Positions 2,267 through 13,205 of a DNA stretch of 64,000 nucleotides are shown here, in pieces. The notes under the pieces were generated by a model. It saw only the letters and a list, made by a program, of their open reading frames with translations, ran no database searches and was not told the origin of the DNA. Every line of letters starts with the position of its first letter. Within the stretch, counting starts at the first letter, position 1. The translations under genes and the position numbers were made by a program. The stretch comes from Candidatus Sumerlaeaceae bacterium (GTDB lineage: Bacteria > Sumerlaeota > Sumerlaeia > Sumerlaeales > Sumerlaeaceae), in assembly GCA_049968255.1 (NCBI GenBank), contig JBMFRB010000009.1, forward strand, positions 32,001-96,000. The letters are read 5' to 3'.

Positions 2267-4111
2267 TTATGATTTTGGCTCGGCTTCCACGCCTTGGAAC
2301 TCGAGGAACTCGCATCGGATCTTCGCGCGCTCAAGATCAACCGGCACGCCCTCCTGTGTCTGTACGAATCTCCATTGTTTGGCTGTCGCCGCCGGCTGAG
2401 CCTCTAGGTCTATCCGCTGAAGGTAAACGGGACACGAAGCCACAGCGTAGCAGTTATAAAATTCAAAGCAGCGCTCTCCCACGCGCGATTCTTCACGTTC
2501 GACGATGCCCCGAACTTCCTCTTTGCTGGGCACCGATGATGCCAGAGCCATGAGCGACGAATTTGGATAATAGTGCTCCAGGATCTCACGATAGTTCTTG
2601 CCGCGGTAGGCCATCATCGTAGCGCCGACCTGACACATGCCGGCACCGTGTCCCCAACCAGCACCCTTGAGGATCACTGTGGCGATGGTCCCATCCGCAT
2701 TGCGCTCGTAGTTCACAACGAAAGCCGAGCTGTAAAGGAACGACGGACTCAGCGCTTCTCGGATAGAGTATTGCTTGGCGACTGTGCCGAGCACCCATGA
2801 ACCGCGCGTGCCCACGACGCGCAGGTATTCCACGCGTCCCGATGCTCCTCGCGAGATTGGCTCGAGCGCCTCAAGCCGTCCGATATCCACGCCAAGGTAT
2901 TGAGATAGCCGCTCTTCGAGTTCCCGGCGATCGAGCCGAATCTCCCAACGAAAGTAAGGTGCAGAATAACGCAGGTAAGGTGGCACGTCGTCGCCAGTGG
3001 TGTTGCACCACACATCCGGTTTTGCGGCGATAAGCGCCGCTGCGTGCTCCTCCGTGTTTGCAGGGAAGTATTGTTCGACTTCGGAGCCAGCTGGCGCATC
3101 TGGCTTAGCCACGAGATAGCCACGGGGCTCCTCGTTCCACACGCTGTCAAAACTCTCAATGATACCTCCGCACATTTTCGAGTAGCGGCAGTCGCACACC
3201 TCTCCATTGTGCACGAGAACCTCACCTAGTGTGGCGAGAGTCACACGCCGCGAATCGGCTGTTTCGCGCGAGGATCCTCGATAGCATTGGCAATGGTCAT
3301 CTGCGCACAGGTGGAAAGGATCGGCATAATGGTGTTTGCCCATCGTGGCAAAGAGGGTATTGCGTGCGGCGACCGTCTGGGCCTTGAGCAGTTCCTCGGG
3401 CATGACCGACATCATCTCCGACGAGTTCACCGAAAAAAGGTAGGCCTCGGCCGGCAGCTCGTTGATCGCGGTCAGCAGCCCCTTATTGTCGACCCGTATT
3501 TCCACGACACCGCGGAAGCGCTGGCGTTCATAGTGCTTCCAGTGAAAACTCACTCCGACAATCACATCGTGAATGACTGCGCGATCGTTGTCGGGATCGC
3601 ATGGCTCGAACCGAACCCATTGGCCTGCCCGCAGCACGAGGTCCCCCGCGTGCACACGAACCATGCCACGGGGCGCCTCGACGCACTCGGTCATGAGGGA
3701 GACGCGTTCACGTTTCGGCAATCGCGCTTGCAGCGTCGTCGCTTCTTCCTCTGTGCCATAGCGCCGCGAGCAACGCCAGTATTCGACGCTGGAAATTCCG
3801 GCCGCAAACTCGTACCCAAGTCGCAAAGTTTCCAAGGGATCAAGGACAGGATGCGGTGAGCTCACTGCATCGGCGACCTCGCGCTTAGGCGATTTCGCCA
3901 GGACGAGCCGATAGCCAAGCACTGCGGGCCGCGCCTCGACCACAGTGAACCGAAAATCCGCCGCCTCGAGCAAGCGCTCATCTCCCCGTGCGCCCGATGC
4001 CGTGACGATGCGATAGCGGCCCCGCAGCGAAACTCGAATCTGCTGCTGGTGTTGAAGGATCCCGATGCGTACGCGGGGACCCCACCACTCAGAATAACTG
4101 AGTTTCTCCAT
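2267..4111 (-). CDS. SpoIID/LytB domain protein (putative lytic transglycosylase)
   Basis: INELPAEAYL..V..SEM, LKAQTVAAR, CADDHCQCY and GAGWGHGAGMCQ.GA...Y.EIL.HYYP. Confidence 0.9.
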   Translation of the reverse strand: MEKLSYSEWWGPRVRIGILQHQQQIRVSLRGRYRIVTASGARGDERLLEAADFRFTVVEARPAVLGYRLVLAKSPKREVADAVSSPHPVLDPLETLRLGYEFAAGISSVEYWRCSRRYGTEEEATTLQARLPKRERVSLMTECVEAPRGMVRVHAGDLVLRAGQWVRFEPCDPDNDRAVIHDVIVGVSFHWKHYERQRFRGVVEIRVDNKGLLTAINELPAEAYLFSVNSSEMMSVMPEELLKAQTVAARNTLFATMGKHHYADPFHLCADDHCQCYRGSSRETADSRRVTLATLGEVLVHNGEVCDCRYSKMCGGIIESFDSVWNEEPRGYLVAKPDAPAGSEVEQYFPANTEEHAAALIAAKPDVWCNTTGDDVPPYLRYSAPYFRWEIRLDRRELEERLSQYLGVDIGRLEALEPISRGASGRVEYLRVVGTRGSWVLGTVAKQYSIREALSPSFLYSSAFVVNYERNADGTIATVILKGAGWGHGAGMCQVGATMMAYRGKNYREILEHYYPNSSLMALASSVPSKEEVRGIVEREESRVGERCFEFYNCYAVASCPVYLQRIDLEAQPAATAKQWRFVQTQEGVPVDLERAKIRCEFLEFQGVEAEPKS

Positions 4112-4144: not shown

Positions 4145-5806
4145 TTATGCCTCTTCTGCCACGCTCGCAAAGCGGTCGCTGCTCGCTGAATTCCTGCCGC
4201 AGCGCCGCTCAATGATCGAAAGCAGGTCATCCAGGCTTTCGCGCGAGCATTCTCCCATAAAGCAAATCTGGATCCAGTTGCGCTCAAGTAGGTACTCGCT
4301 CATGTAGCTGAGCAGGAAGCCGGCCTCCTCGAGCTCGCGTCCCACGTCGAAAGAGCGCAGGTGTGGCGGTAGCACCAGTGTGATCACGGCCGGTGCCGCA
4401 TGCTCCTCCGGCGCCAGCACGGTCAGGCCTGCCTGGCGCAGACGCTCGCGAGCCCACGCGGAAATCTCTGCACGTTGCGCGAAAGGCGGATGTGCCTCGA
4501 AGCGTTCTAGAGCGGCCTTCAAAGCACGGATGAGGTTCGATGAGTGGGTGAAGGGCACGCCCTCTTTTGAGGCGTAATAGCCCAGATCGAGGTAGCGCGG
4601 CAAAGATTTTGCTGGGATGACTTTGTGGTTATAAAACACCATCGACAATCCCGGGAATGAGCCAATCCCCTTGCCACTCACCGCGGAAGCAAGGTACAAT
4701 TCGCTCATGTCCAGCGGCACAATGCCAAAAGACGAAATGCAGTCCATGGCCAGCTTAATGCCGCGCTCCTTAGCAATAGCGAGTAATGTCGGCAAGTTGT
4801 TGAGAATACCTGTGGACGTCTCGCAGTGCACCCCCCACATCCAGCCCAGCTTTGGACTTTGCTCCACACGCGCACGCAAGGCCTCGTAGTCAAACGGCTC
4901 GCCATAAGGAGCGTCGAAAACCTCGAAGGCTAGGCCAAAACGCGACGCAGCGTCGGCAAGCCGCCAGCCGAACTCACCGTTGGCGAGAACAAGACCAGGC
5001 CTATTGAGCAGCTTCAATTGCGCACCGACCACATCATTGGCCAGCGTGCCTGAACCGACGAAGATCTCGACATGTCGAGCCTTTGTCAGCCGGCACAGTT
5101 GCACCTTCATGCCCTGAAATTCGCGCATAAACTCCTTGCCGCGATGCGACACAGGTGCCTGCGCAAACGCCGCCTGTACGTCGGGATGAATGTTCACGGG
5201 ACCCGGCAGGAAATTTGCCACACGGGTCTCAGATTCATTCTCCATACCGAGGATTTCCTCCGGACCGAGAACCTGCATGGTGATTTTTTCGAATTCCTTC
5301 TTTGTCATGTACATCGGCTGAAATTGCGCCCCAGGGCTGCCCACAAGCGGCCCAAAAGGCACAAAGCCCAGATGTTGATATAATTTGAGCTGGCGAGTGG
5401 TTCCGCTGATGAGCGCCAGGTCATAACCCTTACGCAAGGCGTAACGGGCTAGTTCCAGTGCCAGGCCGCGGAACACGCGCCCCGTGCGAAATTCTGGCTC
5501 CACTGCCAGCAAGCGAATTTCGCACATGGCATTTGCTGGGGGCAAGAGATCGTCAAGATCCGCTAGCTTCAGATCCAGCGAAAAGGGGCGGCGATCCCGC
5601 ACTGCCAACATTCCCACCACCCGGCCGTCGCATACGCAAATCAGATAGGTGTTTTCATCATGGAAACGATCCACGAGCTTCCCCTCTTCATTCGGCTGAT
5701 GCTGGGGGATCTCTTTGACAAAAGTCCGGTAATTGAGCCTGTGAATCTGCTCGAACTCTTCCGGCTCAGTGGCCACTTTGAATGTAAGCGGCTTATGCGA
5801 TTTCAT
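4145..5806 (-). CDS. Fusion of GNAT-type N-acyl-amide synthase domain and class V PLP aminotransferase
   Basis: N-terminal RLNYRTFV.EIPQH, CEIRLLAV and LYQHLGF. C-terminal FLPGPV, SGTLAND, HCETSTG, DCISS and SGKGIG (PLP lysine). Start placed at the ATG at 5806; the ORF track starts at 5827. Confidence 0.85.
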   Translation of the reverse strand: MKSHKPLTFKVATEPEEFEQIHRLNYRTFVKEIPQHQPNEEGKLVDRFHDENTYLICVCDGRVVGMLAVRDRRPFSLDLKLADLDDLLPPANAMCEIRLLAVEPEFRTGRVFRGLALELARYALRKGYDLALISGTTRQLKLYQHLGFVPFGPLVGSPGAQFQPMYMTKKEFEKITMQVLGPEEILGMENESETRVANFLPGPVNIHPDVQAAFAQAPVSHRGKEFMREFQGMKVQLCRLTKARHVEIFVGSGTLANDVVGAQLKLLNRPGLVLANGEFGWRLADAASRFGLAFEVFDAPYGEPFDYEALRARVEQSPKLGWMWGVHCETSTGILNNLPTLLAIAKERGIKLAMDCISSFGIVPLDMSELYLASAVSGKGIGSFPGLSMVFYNHKVIPAKSLPRYLDLGYYASKEGVPFTHSSNLIRALKAALERFEAHPPFAQRAEISAWARERLRQAGLTVLAPEEHAAPAVITLVLPPHLRSFDVGRELEEAGFLLSYMSEYLLERNWIQICFMGECSRESLDDLLSIIERRCGRNSASSDRFASVAEEA

Positions 5807-5934
5807 AAAGCCTTTCGCTCCTCCCACGTGCTCCCAGGAGCTTGCCCGCGGGGTGCTCGTGAATCGCCTTTGCTATTTTTTTATTTCTCAAGCTGCGTTT
5901 ATCGTATATCTGTTGAAGTGAGTTCAAGCATTGT

Positions 5935-6969: not shown

Positions 6970-7941
6970 TCATCGCACCCTTATCAATGGCGAGCGTTTC
7001 CGCGACCGCCGCCTCTGCCCCTGTTTCCGCCCATAGAAAAGCATACACGGAGAGCTCGAAGCGACGTAGGGCTCCCCTTCGTATGATCCAAAAATTTGCA
7101 CCACTTCGAACCCGGCCCGACGAAGCGCTGCCACGAGCTCGCGCCGACTGTAAAGACGCAGGTAATAATCCGCCACCTCCGTACGGTTTCCCACCGTGAA
7201 ACGTGTGACATTCGAAAGAACTCTGCGCAAGCGGTCGTAGCTAAACTCTTCCTCTATCTCGAAATCCTTTGTGATGAGCCAACGGCGCGGAGCACTCATC
7301 ACGGCTTCGATAAGCGGCCGGGGATTTGGCGCTTCCAGAAGAAGCTGGCCACCCGAAATCAGGACTCGCCCAATCTCCTGAAGCACGAGTTCATTTTCGG
7401 CGATCGGAGCAGCCTGAGCAGCTTCGGCCACATCGGCAGGCGTGTCGCCCGTCTTATAACTGCCGAATTCAGGAGAGACAAGTTTGCGCTCATAAAAGAC
7501 TTGCGGCAGTTTCCACAACTCTCGCTTCACATCGAGCGAGGGGGAGGCCGGTGGTTGTACAAAATAGCCAAAGCTATTGAACAACAGCACAACGGCGTCA
7601 AACGAAGCATCGCGCAATGGCAAGCGTCGCATATCACCTCGGATGGCTGAAAATCGCCCCACCTGACGTCGCGGCATAGTGGCCAGTGCTCGTGCCAGAT
7701 ATTCGTGGTTGTGGTCCAGCCCCACAACCCACGCGTGTCGTGAGAAAATTCGCGCGTGGCGGCCAAATCCGCAAGCGAGGTCCAAAACACGTTTGCCGTC
7801 GAGTTCAAGGATGTGCCGCGCGAACTCTGCTTCCCGCCGTGTTTGCGAAGGCGGCAGCAAATGCCGGCTGTAAAGTTCTCCGTAAAGTTTGCCAAAATAG
7901 CGCTTCGTCCAGTCACCTGGCCCTGGGCCATGCGCCGTCAT
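6970..7941 (-). CDS. Class I SAM-dependent methyltransferase
   Basis: VLDLACGFGRH, GDMR and FDAVV..FNSFGYF. The start overlaps the stop of the upstream radical SAM gene (ATGA). Confidence 0.88.
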   Translation of the reverse strand: MTAHGPGPGDWTKRYFGKLYGELYSRHLLPPSQTRREAEFARHILELDGKRVLDLACGFGRHARIFSRHAWVVGLDHNHEYLARALATMPRRQVGRFSAIRGDMRRLPLRDASFDAVVLLFNSFGYFVQPPASPSLDVKRELWKLPQVFYERKLVSPEFGSYKTGDTPADVAEAAQAAPIAENELVLQEIGRVLISGGQLLLEAPNPRPLIEAVMSAPRRWLITKDFEIEEEFSYDRLRRVLSNVTRFTVGNRTEVADYYLRLYSRRELVAALRRAGFEVVQIFGSYEGEPYVASSSPCMLFYGRKQGQRRRSRKRSPLIRVR

Positions 7942-10403
7942 GCGCTTTGCCTCCGGGCAAGTTCGTCGCGGATTTCGCGTTCGAGAGCTGCATAGTCGAC
8001 GTCCGCCCGCTGATAAGTCTCGTCGAACAGCTTGGCGTGGTGCTCAAACTCGTGAATGTCTTTGTATCCTTCGAGCATGCAATGCTGGCAATCGAAATCC
8101 TCTTCGGGTGTGCTCACGCGACGACGGAAATCCTCATATGCGGGGCCAACCCAAGCCTCGACAAAATCCATGCCGCGGAGCGAGCCGAGGCGCGAATCGT
8201 TGACGCAGCAAGGGCCCAGCGAACCATCGGCATGCACGAGCACAAAACCGTAAGGTTCCACGCACTTGAGCCGTGGCGCGTCTGGCGAATTCTTTCCCTC
8301 GGCCGTGTGCTCATCGGTTTGGCTTGTTCGCTGTTGTCCGAAAAAGCCAGGAAGATAGAGGGCGAGCCCAAGTTCCTCGGCCACTCGTTTGGCGTCGGCC
8401 ATGCAGCGATCCGAAAGCTCCTGATAAAAATAGAGCGACTCCGTGAGCAGCTCGCGGCTGTAGACCTGCAAAAATCCTACGTTCACCGCGTCGGCGCCAA
8501 GATCCTTCGCCATTCTTACGAAATCAGGGAGTTGTTCAATGTTCGACCTTTGCGCCACGAAATTCAAGGCCACGCGCGGACGTGTGCGCTTCAGCTCGCG
8601 TCGCAGCCGGGTGAGAGTTCGCACGTTGTCAATCACGCGATGGAAAAGCTTAGAGCCACGGATTTTTTCAAATGTCTTCGCGTCCACTCCATCAATCGAA
8701 ATCCATAGCTCATGTAGCCCCAATTCGATGAGGCGTCGTGATATCGCTTCCCCAAGCAGCAAGCCGTTCGTGATAATGCGCACGGCACAATGTTCATGTG
8801 GCACCTCGGCCAGCATCTCCATGAGCTGCGGGTGCAGGAATGTTTCTCCACAACCCGTGAAATGGATGAGGTCCATGTAGCGCAGCAGCGGCCGGATTTT
8901 AGCAAACACATCCAGGGAAATGCGTTTGCGCGGACCAGAGAGAACTGTTTGTGTGCACATCGGGCAGCGTAAGTTGCACTCATCCGTCACCTCAATGTAC
9001 ATGCGATGGGGATAGCTAGCTACGCGGCGCAAACCATGCCGATGCTCATAGTTACGGATTTCGGCGTTAAGGCGGCGTGCCACTGAGTCCTTGGCCACTG
9101 CATCAAGAGTTTGCCGCACAACATCAAGGTACTCCATAGGCGGCTCATTGTGGGCTGACTCTTCGTAAGCTGCTAGGAGGTAAGGCACTTCCCAGACGTT
9201 GCGGTTGGCCGGTGCCTGACATTCGTAGCAGTCGCGGGAGAAACACCCCCTGGCTGCCTGCTCACGCAAAGAAATCCAGTCCGCATCGTCCCACTCGTGC
9301 CTAACGTGGCCACGGCGCAATGTTTGTTGCGTGAAGCAGCTCGATGCCATGTTTCCTGCTAGGTGAGCAGACCCGTAAGCTCGCCTATAGAATGCGGGTT
9401 CGTGGCTATCCATGCCCAGGAGAGCAGGGGCGCCGATGAGCTCAATGTTCATGTTCTTACAACGCGCCACAAAGCGCGAAAGAGTTTCCTGCGCTTCTTC
9501 CTGACAAAAAAAGAGCGAACGTGGGATGGCCGCGGCATCCCGCGCGCGTTCCAAAAACAGCGCAATCGAATGAGGTCTGAATTGCGCGTCTAAGAGCGAG
9601 TCTGTTGCAAGCCAGGACAGGTTTTTGCGATTGAGACGCAGCTGCCATCCGAAATGAATCATCTGCCCAGGATTCTCGTGATTCCACTCCCATAGAAATC
9701 TAGTGACTTTGGGGAGCGCCTCGTGCGGCGGCGGCAAGACCTCACCGTTGCCAAAGTCTACGATCAGCGTTTGGCACAAAACGGACTCAAAAAAAGTTTT
9801 CAGCTCGCCAGCTTCCAGCAGTGCCGGATGACGCACGAGCAGACGCGCCGCACAGGGAGCTTGTACAAAATGAGCTCCGAGACTCGCTAAGCACGCGGCG
9901 CTTGGGGCAGGCCAAACATCAGCGACAATGGTGAATTCTCGCGCCCAAAGCAGAACGCTGGCTAGTGCGTTCGACAATTCTCCCTGATCAGCAAGCTGCG
10001 AAAGGTAAAGGACGCCGTGCGTCGGCAGCGATGCGACACGACCTAGCCCTCGATGGAATTCCACTTCTTGCAATGCCGCATTGAGTGCGTGTGCCGCCAG
10101 CGGATCCGAGCACTCTTCGAGGGCCCTGCGCAGGGAGTGCTGAAACTCTCCAAAGTTGTCATGGTTTCCCTTCCGACTCTGCGGAGGCGCTCCCTCGTTA
10201 CCAGGATCAGAAGCTTCCTCAGCAAGCCGATAAAAGGCGCGATAAGCCGCCTGGGCTAATTTCGGATGACGTGCGAGCCATGCAGGCTCCTGCGCCAGCA
10301 AAGCCAGTGCGCGACACGTCAGTTCGCGCATGAGTGGCTGGCGGGCGAATGCTCGCGCAGCTTGATGTGCCAGAGATGGCTGTGAGACCTTAGCATGTTC
10401 CAT
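7938..10403 (-). CDS. Radical SAM protein with SPASM/twitch domain and a degenerate N-terminal duplicate
   Basis: CNLRCPMC (CxxxCxxC), GCGETFLHP, ITNGLLL, ISIDG and C-terminal C..P....V.ADG...PCC...DCQHC. Confidence 0.88.
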   Translation of the reverse strand: MEHAKVSQPSLAHQAARAFARQPLMRELTCRALALLAQEPAWLARHPKLAQAAYRAFYRLAEEASDPGNEGAPPQSRKGNHDNFGEFQHSLRRALEECSDPLAAHALNAALQEVEFHRGLGRVASLPTHGVLYLSQLADQGELSNALASVLLWAREFTIVADVWPAPSAACLASLGAHFVQAPCAARLLVRHPALLEAGELKTFFESVLCQTLIVDFGNGEVLPPPHEALPKVTRFLWEWNHENPGQMIHFGWQLRLNRKNLSWLATDSLLDAQFRPHSIALFLERARDAAAIPRSLFFCQEEAQETLSRFVARCKNMNIELIGAPALLGMDSHEPAFYRRAYGSAHLAGNMASSCFTQQTLRRGHVRHEWDDADWISLREQAARGCFSRDCYECQAPANRNVWEVPYLLAAYEESAHNEPPMEYLDVVRQTLDAVAKDSVARRLNAEIRNYEHRHGLRRVASYPHRMYIEVTDECNLRCPMCTQTVLSGPRKRISLDVFAKIRPLLRYMDLIHFTGCGETFLHPQLMEMLAEVPHEHCAVRIITNGLLLGEAISRRLIELGLHELWISIDGVDAKTFEKIRGSKLFHRVIDNVRTLTRLRRELKRTRPRVALNFVAQRSNIEQLPDFVRMAKDLGADAVNVGFLQVYSRELLTESLYFYQELSDRCMADAKRVAEELGLALYLPGFFGQQRTSQTDEHTAEGKNSPDAPRLKCVEPYGFVLVHADGSLGPCCVNDSRLGSLRGMDFVEAWVGPAYEDFRRRVSTPEEDFDCQHCMLEGYKDIHEFEHHAKLFDETYQRADVDYAALEREIRDELARRQSA

Positions 10404-10684: not shown

Positions 10685-13078
10685 TTACACATCCGATGGA
10701 AAAACGATCACTTTCAGCCGGTAGCTGTTGTCCGCTTCGTTGAGCTCGCGGATGCGATTTGTTGCATCCACGCGCACCTCCACCTCATGTTCACCCTCAC
10801 CGAAGGGCGGCAGCTCGACGCCACTGAACGAGTACACGCTTGGGCCATAGAGCGGCGGCACAGCGAACGATTTCACCACGACGCCATCCACAAGAATATC
10901 GGCCTGCGATGCTTTACCCGCCTCCGAAGTCCCCGTGTTCGCGACCGAGAACCACGCATAGACGGGTTGTCCGCTCAACAGCACGTCGGGGAATGGCACC
11001 CAGTCAGTCCGATTGCTTAGACGGAGCGGGCGATATAAATTAGACGGGGGGAGCAGTCTCGCTGCTGCACCAGAGTCGATATTTTTCGCCGCGAAATTTG
11101 GGAAGCTATCCGGTGGGGCAGGTCCCGGAACGATGGCAAGATTCTCCCCCTTTCGGATCTTTCCTATCGCTGCCCAAGCGTCGACGAGGCCAGCTCCTGT
11201 CACTTGGTCAAATCCTGCTGCCGCCCGATCACCGGTCACGTCCACCGCCGTTTGCGAGAGAATCCTCATGATATCCGCCGGCTTGAGCTTTGAATCCGCC
11301 TGCCGGAGCAGGGCCGCCACCGCTGCAGCATTGGGAGCCGCCGCGCTTGTTCCAAAGAAATTCGGAAATGGTGTTCCGTCGTCATAATCGAATCCGAATA
11401 ACAAGGTGTCGCAGCCGTCCACGGCAGCGATGTTCGGGACTAGAGCCACTCGAGGCTTATAACGCCCCTGCGCATTGAAGGGAATCTGAATGTTTCCGCC
11501 GCGCGAAGTGAACCACTCCGGGTCTATGAGTGACGTCGGTCCGTGGCCAACCGGATCATAGGCAGGAGCTTCCTCAAAGCGTACTGCTGCCACACATCCG
11601 GCGCCACTGGCTGTCTGGTGGCCGGTGGTTGTCGGCCCTAGTACGGGCACGATGACTCCATGTTCGTCGGCTCGGTACGCCCACAGCCAAAATTCCACCG
11701 GCGTCCGCCGGTTCTGCGGGATGTGATTCTGGGGACCATGGAAGTGATCGACCGCGACATAAGCTGTGATAGGTTCAGTGCCAGAGTAAGAAATATAGAG
11801 AGTTTCTATGGGATCGCCCATTGGGCTGCCAGCCTCTCCCTGGCTGTCAGAGTAGCTGAACCATAATGACGCTTCGCTGGGAGGCACAGGCTCCGTCATG
11901 AAATAAAGATCGAGGTCTACTTGGGCGCCGCCTGTCGAAGGGGAGAACGTCTCCCACGGTTGGTTCCACTGCAGAACGAGAGTGATCTCCGAGTCCGGCG
12001 TAAAAGTAATCGGAAGGTAGGGGCCATATCCTGATCCCCACACTGCAAGGTCCGCCTCGGTTGCAGGCCAGCTCTCGTTGTCTGTCACGCCTGGATTGGC
12101 ATCCTGGTAGCTAAGGCGGATTCCAGAATCGCTAGAATTCCCAGCGCACGTGAAATATGCAGTCCCTGAGCGGATCACCGACGCAATCGCGGTGGAGACA
12201 GGGCTCTCCATGAACCACGGCTCGTCATAATACGTGTAGTCGTCCGTTATGATCGTGCAACCGGCGGACCGCAGCGCAAGGATTCCCTGTGCCATGCGAA
12301 GAAAGTCCGGCTCAGCCGTGTGGAAGGCAAGCTTTGCCCCCGGTGCAATGTCATAAATGAGTTCCGCCATCGCCTCCCCTTCGTCTCCTGGCGTCCACGA
12401 CGGCCAGAAAACGTTGGCGTCGTCGGCCAACAACTCGACTTCCGCGGGCAGTTCACCCATCAGTTGGGGCTTCGAATTGCGCAGAGTTCCCGGGGTGTTT
12501 TGCGGTGGTTCTGTGTCTGGCCTGCGCACCGGCGGGCCAAAAGCGAACGAGTCGGACAGAATGCCGACCTTCTGCGAGGCGCCGTCGAGAAAGCGTGAAC
12601 TGCGTAACGTATCCACGCGGTGAGCCTTGACACCCTGACTCTCGGCGACACCTACGTTCGAGCGGCCTTTGTAAGCGGGTCGAATTCGCACAACTTCAGG
12701 AATAGCCGCGATAGCTTGCAGGTCTTCGTCACTACCCAAAGCCACCGTGACGACGTTGGAATCCGGATACACGCCTGTGATCTGCGAATTTTTGAGCGCG
12801 AATTTCTTCAGCACCGATTCGTTCACAGCTGTGCACCCAACGATGACGATCGTTCGCTTTGCGGCCCTAGCAAAGCCCTTGCCCGTGCTGACGGTGAACT
12901 TACCTGATTTGACAGCAAACGTTTTTTCGGCCCCTCTTTGCAGCAGCGGCGCAGCCACTTTGCGGGCTAGCGGCGGGGGGAGTGCGCCTACGGTTTTCGT
13001 TAGTGGTGCAGCACTCGAGTCAAAGCAAAGCCCCAGGGCCAGTAGAGTGCCGACCGAACTCCAGGTTCTCCTATTCAT
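10685..13078 (-). CDS. Secreted S8 subtilase-like serine peptidase with C-terminal CARDB-like domain
   Basis: Signal peptide, VGILSDS, DEGEAM (Glu at the His position), AGNS and FFGTSAAAP. C-terminal VDATNRIRELNEADN. A GGAGGT RBS precedes the ATG at 13078. Confidence 0.85.
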   Translation of the reverse strand: MNRRTWSSVGTLLALGLCFDSSAAPLTKTVGALPPPLARKVAAPLLQRGAEKTFAVKSGKFTVSTGKGFARAAKRTIVIVGCTAVNESVLKKFALKNSQITGVYPDSNVVTVALGSDEDLQAIAAIPEVVRIRPAYKGRSNVGVAESQGVKAHRVDTLRSSRFLDGASQKVGILSDSFAFGPPVRRPDTEPPQNTPGTLRNSKPQLMGELPAEVELLADDANVFWPSWTPGDEGEAMAELIYDIAPGAKLAFHTAEPDFLRMAQGILALRSAGCTIITDDYTYYDEPWFMESPVSTAIASVIRSGTAYFTCAGNSSDSGIRLSYQDANPGVTDNESWPATEADLAVWGSGYGPYLPITFTPDSEITLVLQWNQPWETFSPSTGGAQVDLDLYFMTEPVPPSEASLWFSYSDSQGEAGSPMGDPIETLYISYSGTEPITAYVAVDHFHGPQNHIPQNRRTPVEFWLWAYRADEHGVIVPVLGPTTTGHQTASGAGCVAAVRFEEAPAYDPVGHGPTSLIDPEWFTSRGGNIQIPFNAQGRYKPRVALVPNIAAVDGCDTLLFGFDYDDGTPFPNFFGTSAAAPNAAAVAALLRQADSKLKPADIMRILSQTAVDVTGDRAAAGFDQVTGAGLVDAWAAIGKIRKGENLAIVPGPAPPDSFPNFAAKNIDSGAAARLLPPSNLYRPLRLSNRTDWVPFPDVLLSGQPVYAWFSVANTGTSEAGKASQADILVDGVVVKSFAVPPLYGPSVYSFSGVELPPFGEGEHEVEVRVDATNRIRELNEADNSYRLKVIVFPSDV

Positions 13079-13205
13079 AAGCCACCTCCAAGATAGAGTT
13101 CGAAGCAGAGCGGAGGTGAAGGAAGGATAAGGCGTACTGGTGTTTCGCAATCGCCTAGCGCCCTGGTTCGCACTTATTTTCGGAAACGTGTCGCCTCAAG
13201 GCAAC

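Follow-up and report, generated by a model that had tools for sequence, protein, structure and literature searches.

A two-domain gene and its product

We analysed a 64,000-nucleotide stretch of DNA (the window) from a Candidatus Sumerlaeaceae bacterium, in which a reverse-strand open reading frame at 4145-5806 starts with an ATG at 5806 and encodes a protein of 553 aa. The same frame can be read from an upstream GTG (5827..4145, reverse strand), giving 560 aa. In the homologue alignment, ATG 5806 marks where homologues begin, and the sequence contains a GGAGG at 5824-5820, 13 nt ahead of this ATG; the alternative GTG at 5827 overlaps the GGAGG. Because 5721 of the 8000 candidate proteins scored matched the product at E ≤ 0.001, with 53-100% identity among the best 120 of these homologues, the ORF is, on sequence grounds, a real gene and not a chance ORF. 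Promoter and terminator scans around the gene revealed nothing useful, and an Rfam scan of the window gave no matches. The features of the locus are as follows.

5820..5824, reverse strand: GGAGG, a ribosome-binding-like site, read from sequence
4145..5806, reverse strand: coding sequence of the predicted bifunctional N-acyl synthase/aminotransferase, 553 aa (ORF, Pfam, homologues); stop codon 4145-4147
5252..5806, reverse strand: N-terminal FeeM/PF13444-type N-acyl synthase domain, residues 1-185 (Pfam, AF2 model, structural matches)
5519..5521, reverse strand: codon of Glu96 in CEIRLLAV, invariant in 25/25 aligned homologues and kept in Gemella
5225..5251, reverse strand: inter-domain linker, residues 186-194 (low pLDDT; length varies among homologues, gapped in the alignment)
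4196..5224, reverse strand: C-terminal class V (AGT/SGAT/PhnW-type) PLP aminotransferase domain, residues 195-537 (Pfam, sequence and structural matches)
4742..4744, reverse strand: codon of Asp355, invariant among aligned homologues
4670..4672, reverse strand: codon of Lys379 (SGKG), invariant and kept in Gemella
4280..4282, reverse strand: codon of Arg509 (RNWIQ), invariant and kept in Gemella
4148..4195, reverse strand: unconserved C-terminal tail, residues 538-553 (low pLDDT; homologues do not align there)

The N-terminal domain matched FeeM (PF21926; residues 20-161, 42.9 bits, Pfam cut-off 27), which was its best Pfam match, and Acetyltransf_5 (PF13444; residues 24-115, 33.0 bits, cut-off 22.4), and the C-terminal domain matched Aminotran_5 (PF00266; residues 218-396, 25.5 bits, cut-off 21.5). 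An earlier reading made from the sequence only had described one ORF joining an acyltransferase, with Glu96 in CEIRLLAV, to an intact class V PLP aminotransferase, and had proposed a search with the PF13444 and PF00266 models; both models exceeded their cut-offs, and the description is borne out by the Pfam matches and the invariant residues. In the predicted structure, pLDDT fell below 50 at residues 185-194 and 540-553.

The AF2 model of the N-terminal domain (pLDDT 89.1, pTM 0.84) was compared with solved structures. The AHL synthases and FeeM aligned over 164-178 of 190 residues with Z scores of 16.5-17.6 (BjaI, Z 17.6 over 173 residues; LasI, 17.2 over 178; FeeM, 16.5 over 164), and plain GNATs aligned over ∼140 residues with similar Z scores (SACOL1063, Z 17.4 over 142). 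The two types are thus tied in Z score, and aligned length alone favours the FeeM/AHL-synthase type. That the domain is FeeM- or AHL-synthase-like and not a plain acetyltransferase is suggested by its best Pfam match and by the aligned length, with no separation of the two types in Z score. FeeM and the AHL synthases (LasI, BjaI, and TofI) share fold and Pfam family with the domain but stand alone, take amino acids or SAM ready-made, and are only 14-19% identical to it. By analogy with these enzymes we take Glu96 to be the catalytic base.

The nearest curated and solved relatives of the C-terminal domain are of the AGT/SGAT and PhnW types, none of which discriminates its substrate. These class V aminotransferases resemble the domain in fold (target-normalised TM-scores of 0.76-0.85 at 19-28% identity), whereas the domain reaches no curated equivalog cut-off and is fused to an acyltransferase. 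Lys379 in SGKG aligns with the SQKG motif of 1vjo, one of the best solved relatives (E 3.8e-23), at the presumed place of that enzyme's PLP lysine, and is presumed to form the Schiff base with PLP. On the basis of the fold type, Asp355 is the presumed partner of the PLP pyridine nitrogen, and Arg509 is presumed to bind the acid group of the substrate, either phosphate or carboxylate.

Relation to the Gemella enzyme and the predicted reaction

The characterised hm-NAS N-acyl serinol enzyme is reported to have two domains (Cohen et al., Nature 549:48, 2017). The likeness of the window protein to this Gemella type, claimed before any database search, was confirmed by a full-length homologue with the same domain order: BLASTP against the Gemella sp. 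protein P0276 (WP_371452497.1-type) gave 37% identity over 537 columns with an E value of 2e-127. The Gemella protein keeps 92 of the 119 family-invariant columns, including Glu96, His221, Arg222, Asp355, Lys379, and Arg509. A second comparison used P0205 (524 aa), the representative of a 1246-member cluster that contains WP_371452497.1 (Gemella sp.) and WP_294683618.1 (uncultured Gemella sp.); it was 38% identical (E 4e-101), with window residues 8-537 aligned to P0205 residues 2-522. The two enzymes thus agree in domain order, in length class (524 versus 553 aa), and in end-to-end alignment. We infer that this Gemella cluster, compared here through proteins of Gemella sp. and uncultured Gemella sp., represents the characterised G. 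haemolysans nas gene. The window enzyme differs in coming from an environmental Sumerlaeaceae-like genome rather than a human commensal, and its product is predicted only. Moreover, the Gemella protein lies in the opposite half of the midpoint-rooted family tree, and with identity of only 37% the product specificity of the window enzyme could differ.

When expressed in E. coli, the G. haemolysans nas gene alone yields N-oleoyl serinol, whereas wild-type E. coli has no detectable N-acyl amides (PMC13012048); of the family, only this Gemella gene is documented as giving N-acyl serinols on heterologous expression. Transamination of DHAP to serinol phosphate is established for RtxA of Bradyrhizobium elkanii (PMC3222319), in line with what the sequence-only reading had stated for its N-terminal domain, and for Cj1437 of Campylobacter jejuni (PMC11800397). 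Both resemble the window enzyme in the chemistry proposed for its first step; RtxA is instead fused to dihydrorhizobitoxine synthase, and Cj1437 feeds capsule decoration and not an N-acyl synthase.

The reading we favour, at a probability of about 0.6, is that the window enzyme transaminates DHAP to serinol phosphate and then N-acylates it. The protein would be a soluble, cytoplasmic, two-step enzyme. In the first step the C-terminal domain would make an uncommon amine, the likeliest reaction being that of DHAP and an amino-acid donor to serinol phosphate. In the second, the N-terminal domain, acting through Glu96, would transfer a long acyl chain to this amine, with acyl-ACP the probable donor. 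This would yield N-acyl serinol phosphate, which unspecific dephosphorylation might convert to N-acyl serinol. As a distant full-length relative of the Gemella enzyme, the protein probably makes a lipid similar to N-acyl serinol.

Genomic context and the PlsY paralog

The sequence-only reading had put forward the HAD phosphatase encoded at 1517-2146 as a candidate for the dephosphorylation step. This proposal did not survive comparison. The two genes lie together only in two closely related genera, both of which retain the rSAM-MTase-ROK-fusion-SpoIID-HAD block in full, HAD orthologues with 63-67% identity occur in three family members that lack the fusion, no HAD gene was found among the neighbours at 80 related loci, and the Gemella gene is reported to suffice alone in E. 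coli (PMC13012048). The nearby HAD phosphatase is not a specific partner of the fusion enzyme. The SpoIID and ROK neighbours are syntenic only inside the window organism's own family of genomes; a ROK gene also lies near the enzyme gene in two verrucomicrobial loci, on the opposite strand. Further recurrent neighbours were rhodanese (12 loci), EamA (5), and MFS (3) genes, together with epimerase, DnaX, and GlgC genes, and all were set aside as not lipid genes or as rare.

The enzyme family is very large, environmental, and uncharacterised. Clusters at 50% identity that match the window protein at E ≤ 1e-30 number 467, and of 600 candidate stretches scanned in species-representative genomes, at least 574 contain a gene for a relative. 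Within its own phylum the gene is patchy, with carriers amounting to 7 of 75 genomes (6 of 43 of high quality).

At 62 of 81 loci the gene immediately upstream, on the same strand, encodes a divergent PlsY paralog; 17 loci have none there, and two have too little DNA. All four genomes tested carry, besides this adjacent PlsY, a canonical PlsY with a better score, and the fusion-adjacent copies form one group in a quick tree (SH-aLRT 98). PlsY-NAS-AT triple fusions were found in P0109, P0127, P0138, and P0175, and on a plasmid of Bacillus toyonensis plsY and the fusion gene overlap by 4 nt. Long ORFs at two further loci, 767 aa at L018 and 765 aa at L073, resembled PlsY fusions but were discarded as read-through artefacts of ORF calling. 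The coupled modules occur in Verrucomicrobiota, Chloroflexota, Planctomycetota, Acidobacteriota, and Bacillus/Cytobacillus, with an orthologous enzyme 50-56% identical to that of the window. This coupling and occasional fusion to a dedicated PlsY paralog in most relatives marks the family enzyme as lipid-building, acting on a look-alike of glycerol-3-phosphate. This strong link, which the sequence-only reading had not noted, suggests a role in membrane-lipid synthesis, either in place of or in addition to one in signalling.

OlsB and GlsB offer a parallel, as aminolipid N-acyltransferases in which N-acylation of the PF13444 type is the first lipid step (PMC11631085). They differ in acylating free amino acids with 3-hydroxyacyl chains and in having a PlsC-type O-acyltransferase, OlsA or GlsA, as partner, whereas in the family studied here the partner, where present, is of the PlsY type and the aminotransferase is built into the enzyme. 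Profile searches for an OlsBA/GlsBA-type PlsC partner revealed no acyltransferase family in any of the six neighbouring genes scanned in the window.

The window genome differs from the PlsY-coupled modules. No PlsY was found within 1.5 kb upstream of the 4145-5806 gene, and no PlsY paralog was found adjoining the gene or elsewhere in the genome. Its single PlsY, encoded on another contig, is canonical, clusters with the canonical copies in the tree, and scored 110.9 bits against the paralog profile versus 249-324 bits for the paralogs. For this reason the lipid context of the relatives may not apply in the window organism. Five verrucomicrobial genomes also keep the enzyme without the paralog, and thus it is evidently useful without it.

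These observations bear directly on whether a phospholipid with a serinol-phosphate backbone is made here too, through a route in which a PlsC or the genome's one canonical PlsY O-acylates either N-acyl serinol phosphate or serinol phosphate itself ahead of head-group synthesis. The window protein is nested in the family tree among the PlsY-paralog-coupled enzymes (weak FastTree supports of 0.69-0.81), and the coupling and fusions in relatives also speak for such a route. Given that the only PlsY is of the canonical kind, that no acyltransferase adjoins the gene, and that the verrucomicrobial genomes above retain the enzyme without the paralog, we consider this outcome improbable for the window organism. 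Under the favoured two-step reading, the organism would have a stand-alone version of the enzyme without a PlsY paralog, as presumably does Gemella.

Alternative amines and wider meaning

The aminotransferase domain could instead make a common amino acid (alanine, or else glycine or serine from glyoxylate or hydroxypyruvate, respectively), which the N-terminal domain would acylate to a commendamide-like or serine-lipid-like product. The top-ranking relatives of the domain among solved and curated proteins include alanine-glyoxylate and serine-pyruvate aminotransferases (1vjo), the invariant Arg509 suits a carboxylate as well as a phosphate, and amino acids are described as common substrates of PF13444 enzymes (PMC11631085). 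It is hard to see, however, what would be gained by fusing an aminotransferase to supply an amino acid that is already abundant, and the Gemella homologue is reported to yield serinol amides in E. coli despite plentiful glycine and serine (PMC13012048). The conserved partner of the family is, moreover, a paralog of glycerol-3-phosphate acyltransferase, which fits a glycerol-3-phosphate-like acceptor. An N-acyl amino acid synthase is, on balance, quite improbable.

Synthesis of N-acyl 2-aminoethylphosphonate, with the C-terminal domain acting as PhnW/AepZ on phosphonoacetaldehyde, would agree with the best NCBIfam match (PhnW-AepZ TIGR03301, E 5.4e-42) and with the PhnW structures among the top structural matches, but is scarcely credible: the TIGR03301 score of 144.4 bits is far below the cut-off of 360.8 and below the 154.5 bits of an unrelated SGAT-like paralog of the same genome, and the route was rejected because no PEP mutase was found above cut-off in the window genome (4% unassembled; best match 111.9 versus 319.55 bits) or in five other carrier genomes. 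The best match to the PEP mutase model in the window genome is a PrpB-like protein beside isocitrate/aconitase-type genes.

The favoured reaction of DHAP transamination followed by N-acylation can be extended to the family. The true product may be N-acyl serinol phosphate, which resembles lysophosphatidic acid but is amide-linked, and the family may found an undescribed class of serinol-phosphate membrane phospholipids; we regard this extension as unlikely. Were it correct, the aminotransferase and the N-acyl synthase would stand in for GpsA and PlsC, respectively, and sn-1-type O-acylation would fall to the PlsY paralog. In the Sumerlaeaceae-like window organism, which lost the paralog or never had it, the housekeeping PlsY/PlsC would complete the lipid. 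Our search for literature on the fusion, serinol lipids, or the PlsY link found nothing relevant aside from gut-microbiome work, and the words serinol, aminotransferase, and PlsY are absent from a 2026 aminolipid review.

The one family member studied so far belongs to a human commensal, and the lipids it produces act on host receptors; the window places the enzyme in an environmental phylum. The question of its product is directly testable since the family has cultured carriers (Limisphaera spp., Cytobacillus spongiae, and Bacillus toyonensis). That the enzyme is repeatedly coupled and fused to a second PlsY suggests lipids with an amino-glycerol backbone in many bacteria of soil and water; if this is true, the membrane lipidomes and biomarkers of these bacteria would have to be read differently.

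Domain architecture and Gemella relatives

The fusion gene lies in an open reading frame on the reverse strand (5827..4145), and its start is most plausibly the ATG at 5806, which gives a protein of 553 residues; we preferred this codon because it coincides with the starts of homologues and has GGAGG 13 nt upstream. The surrounding base composition shows nothing unusual. The two-domain build proposed in the sequence-only reading was borne out by Pfam, with the following families all above cut-off on one protein.

Residues 20-161: FeeM (PF21926), 42.9 bits
Residues 24-115: Acetyltransf_5 (PF13444), 33.0 bits
Residues 218-396: Aminotran_5 (PF00266), 25.5 bits

No NCBIfam model exceeded its curated cut-off, the top one being PhnW-AepZ (144.4 bits versus 360.8). 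Across 25 aligned homologue sequences with 53-85% identity to the window protein, 119 columns were invariant, including Glu96 of CEIRLLAV, His221-Arg222, Asp355, Lys379 (SGKG), and Arg509. The AlphaFold model of the whole protein had a mean pLDDT of 86.0 and a pTM of 0.64, with low confidence in the linker (residues 185-194), and its C-domain resembled the class V enzymes PH1308, PhnW, and AGT (target-normalised TM-score of about 0.8). The N-domain, modelled separately (pLDDT 89.1), matched the acyl-homoserine lactone (AHL) synthases BjaI, LasI, and TofI as well as FeeM with Z of 16.5-17.6 over 164-178 residues, whereas plain GNATs gave comparable Z with only about 140 residues aligned. Structural ranking alone is a tie, in which only aligned length favours the FeeM/AHL type; with FeeM as its best Pfam match, the N-domain does not appear to group with simple acetyltransferases, a grouping that would have spoken against the sequence-only reading.

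A HMMER search with the fusion protein over 1.84 billion cluster representatives matched 4553 proteins at E ≤ 0.001, of which 2148 reached E ≤ 1e-10 and 467 reached E ≤ 1e-30. From the best 150 of the 4553, the ten full-length matches with the most AT-rich amino-acid make-up were looked up in their clusters. One of these (P0205; 524 residues, 38% identity, E 4e-101, residues 8-537 of the window protein aligning on 2-522) represents a 1246-member cluster that includes proteins named by NCBI as Gemella sp. 20925_1_85 and uncultured Gemella sp. By BLASTP, the window and Gemella proteins share 37% identity over 537 columns (E 2e-127); their Pfam domain order is the same, and the Gemella protein keeps 92 of the 119 invariant columns, including all of the residues named above. 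The Gemella N-acyl serinol enzyme characterised by Cohen et al. in 2017 is said to be two-domain. In one study, the Gemella haemolysans nas gene alone gave N-oleoyl serinol in E. coli, and N-acyl amides were undetectable in the wild-type host (PMC13012048); a table in a review lists serinol and N-palmitoyl serinol for the Gemella hm-NAS (PMC11271093). We infer that the cluster matched here corresponds to the characterised G. haemolysans nas gene, which is the more credible because one gene has to provide both serinol and acylation. Also among the best 150 matches, P0210, P0211, P0214, P0220, P0229, and about 15 more representatives (344-399 residues, 38-50% identity) cover only residues of about 195-540, with their starts right where the two domains meet. 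It seems that the aminotransferase half occurs as a stand-alone gene too.

Genes neighbouring the fusion

1517-2146: HAD phosphatase, beta-phosphoglucomutase/YqaB subfamily (NCBIfam)
2267-4111, reverse strand: SpoIID/LytB-domain protein, 614 residues, beginning 33 nt past the fusion gene
6970-7941, reverse strand: class I methyltransferase weakly resembling RiPP (daptide-type) methyltransferases, overlapping the radical SAM gene by 4 nt
7938-10403, reverse strand: 821-residue protein with radical SAM/SPASM confined to residues of about 460-775
10685-13150, reverse strand: another 821-residue frame, encoding a subtilase S8 that ends in a CARDB domain

The HAD phosphatase had been put forward as a candidate for the dephosphorylation step. 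The gene order radical SAM-methyltransferase-ROK-fusion-SpoIID-HAD recurs in a genome of the same genus, whose fusion is 91% identical, and in a second genus of this family (71%), but a genome from another family of the phylum (56%) does not have it. Family members that lack the fusion have the SpoIID orthologue with neither ROK nor HAD within 1.5 kb, and they carry HAD orthologues elsewhere (63-67% identity in three genomes, 49-52% in three more); moreover, HAD adjoins the fusion in 0 of 80 related loci. In view of this distribution and gene order, the proposed partnership is not upheld and we treat the adjacency as lineage synteny rather than a functional link.

No terminator-like site was found between the fusion and SpoIID genes, and a second, shorter SpoIID-like gene is present on contig C2 of the genome. 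The first ~460 residues of the radical SAM protein matched no Pfam family; its gene and that of the methyltransferase are syntenic in two related genera. The 10685-13150 frame is no paralogue of this radical SAM protein. A PrpB/methylisocitrate-lyase-like gene 5 kb ahead of the window (L003, G000:C9:25101-28676) is flanked on one side by a homoisocitrate/isocitrate-dehydrogenase-like gene and on the other by one for a homoaconitase-like large subunit. None of the three scores above an equivalog cut-off.

PlsY coupling in relatives

A scan of species-representative genomes gave at least 600 candidate stretches, at least 574 of them encoding a fusion relative; we retained the 80 best, at 50-85% identity. 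By label these are in the majority Verrucomicrobiota, with Planctomycetota, Chloroflexota, Methylomirabilota, Acidobacteriota, and Desulfobacterota-type MAGs, and they include one Sumerlaeaceae MAG. Contigs labelled Bifidobacteriaceae or Saccharimonadales (L021, L029, L076, and L023) carry verrucomicrobial-type copies of both fusion and plsY; these MAG labels look unreliable, and label-based phylum counts need care.

A first neighbour survey by crude ORF calling and clustering yielded a sole strongly recurrent neighbour, PlsY (PF02660), directly upstream of the fusion on the same strand. In a cleaner test, the 1.5 kb ahead of each fusion gene was translated in six frames and searched with a profile of adjacent PlsY copies. 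Of the 81 loci, made up of the 80 relatives and the window, 62 have PlsY there, and in every such case its end coincides with the fusion start. PlsY was not found in 17, the window and the Sumerlaeaceae MAG among them; upstream DNA was too short in the other two. In each of the four carrier genomes tested, the PlsY next to the fusion comes in addition to a better-scoring copy elsewhere (129-139 versus 151-186 Pfam bits). On the paralog profile, adjacent copies reach 249-324 bits and distant ones 104-127. In a quick ML tree, a single branch (SH-aLRT 98) has all 65 adjacent PlsY rows on the same side, and four proteins (P0109, P0127, P0138, and P0175) are true PlsY-NAS-aminotransferase fusions. 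The pair also occurs in cultured Bacillota. In Bacillus toyonensis it is carried by a conjugative plasmid of 290 kb (L122, NZ_CP126528.1, 5453-7590), and plsY and the fusion gene overlap by 4 nt. In Cytobacillus spongiae it is on a replicon of 690 kb (L123, NZ_CP089998.1, 4622-9446), with plsY upstream of the fusion gene; here a TIGR02206 membrane protein is encoded ahead of the two genes, and the LTA-synthase-family gene that follows them overlaps the end of the pair. From these copy counts, profile scores, tree, fusions, and Bacillota pairs, we conclude that the PlsY beside the fusion is a dedicated second copy; its presence with the fusion on large extrachromosomal replicons indicates that the module is mobile.

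In the genome carrying the window (3.12 Mb, 95.75% complete), both the fusion and PlsY are single-copy. This PlsY, on contig C2, scores 182 Pfam bits but just 110.9 bits against the paralog profile, and it groups with canonical copies in the quick ML tree. The fusion is patchy in the phylum (7 of 75 genomes, this one counted, and 6 of 43 high-quality ones), and PlsY was found within 1.5 kb at none of its fusion loci. A midpoint-rooted FastTree of 174 family rows nested the window and Sumerlaeaceae proteins within PlsY-coupled verrucomicrobial-type enzymes, at supports no better than 0.69-0.81, and put the Gemella proteins in the opposite half. A nested verrucomicrobial clade of nine likewise lacks adjacent PlsY, and all five of its tested genomes have a single PlsY, 32-36% identical to the paralog. 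The fusion has thus been retained without the PlsY paralog in several lineages. One Planctomycetota-labelled genome of 6 Mb (G005, locus L015) carries the fusion without adjacent PlsY, and no PF02660 PlsY was found genome-wide, so that it must begin phospholipid synthesis differently.

Predicted chemistry and significance

The most economical account would be a two-step reaction in which the C-domain would convert DHAP by transamination into serinol phosphate and the N-domain would then N-acylate the amine of that product. As the 2-amino analogue of glycerol 3-phosphate, serinol phosphate would account for the dedicated PlsY paralog in most relatives. Conversion of DHAP to serinol phosphate has been shown for RtxA of Bradyrhizobium elkanii (PMC3222319) and Cj1437 of Campylobacter jejuni (PMC11800397). 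The sequence is also compatible with an N-acyl amino acid synthase, but this reading seems unlikely to us, as it sits poorly with what the Gemella enzyme makes and with the coupling to PlsY. A role for the C-domain in the aminoethylphosphonate route fails, since no PEP mutase above cut-off was found in this genome or five other carrier genomes and another, unrelated class V enzyme encoded here, a paralog, does as well against the PhnW-AepZ model.

In the literature, we found the fusion described only in gut-commensal work, and found no description of a natural serinol-backbone phospholipid or of the link to PlsY; a 2026 aminolipid review is silent on all three. The enzyme type is already known, and the window gene is a new representative of it without PlsY. 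The cultured Bacillota that carry the plsY/fusion pair are experimentally tractable hosts.
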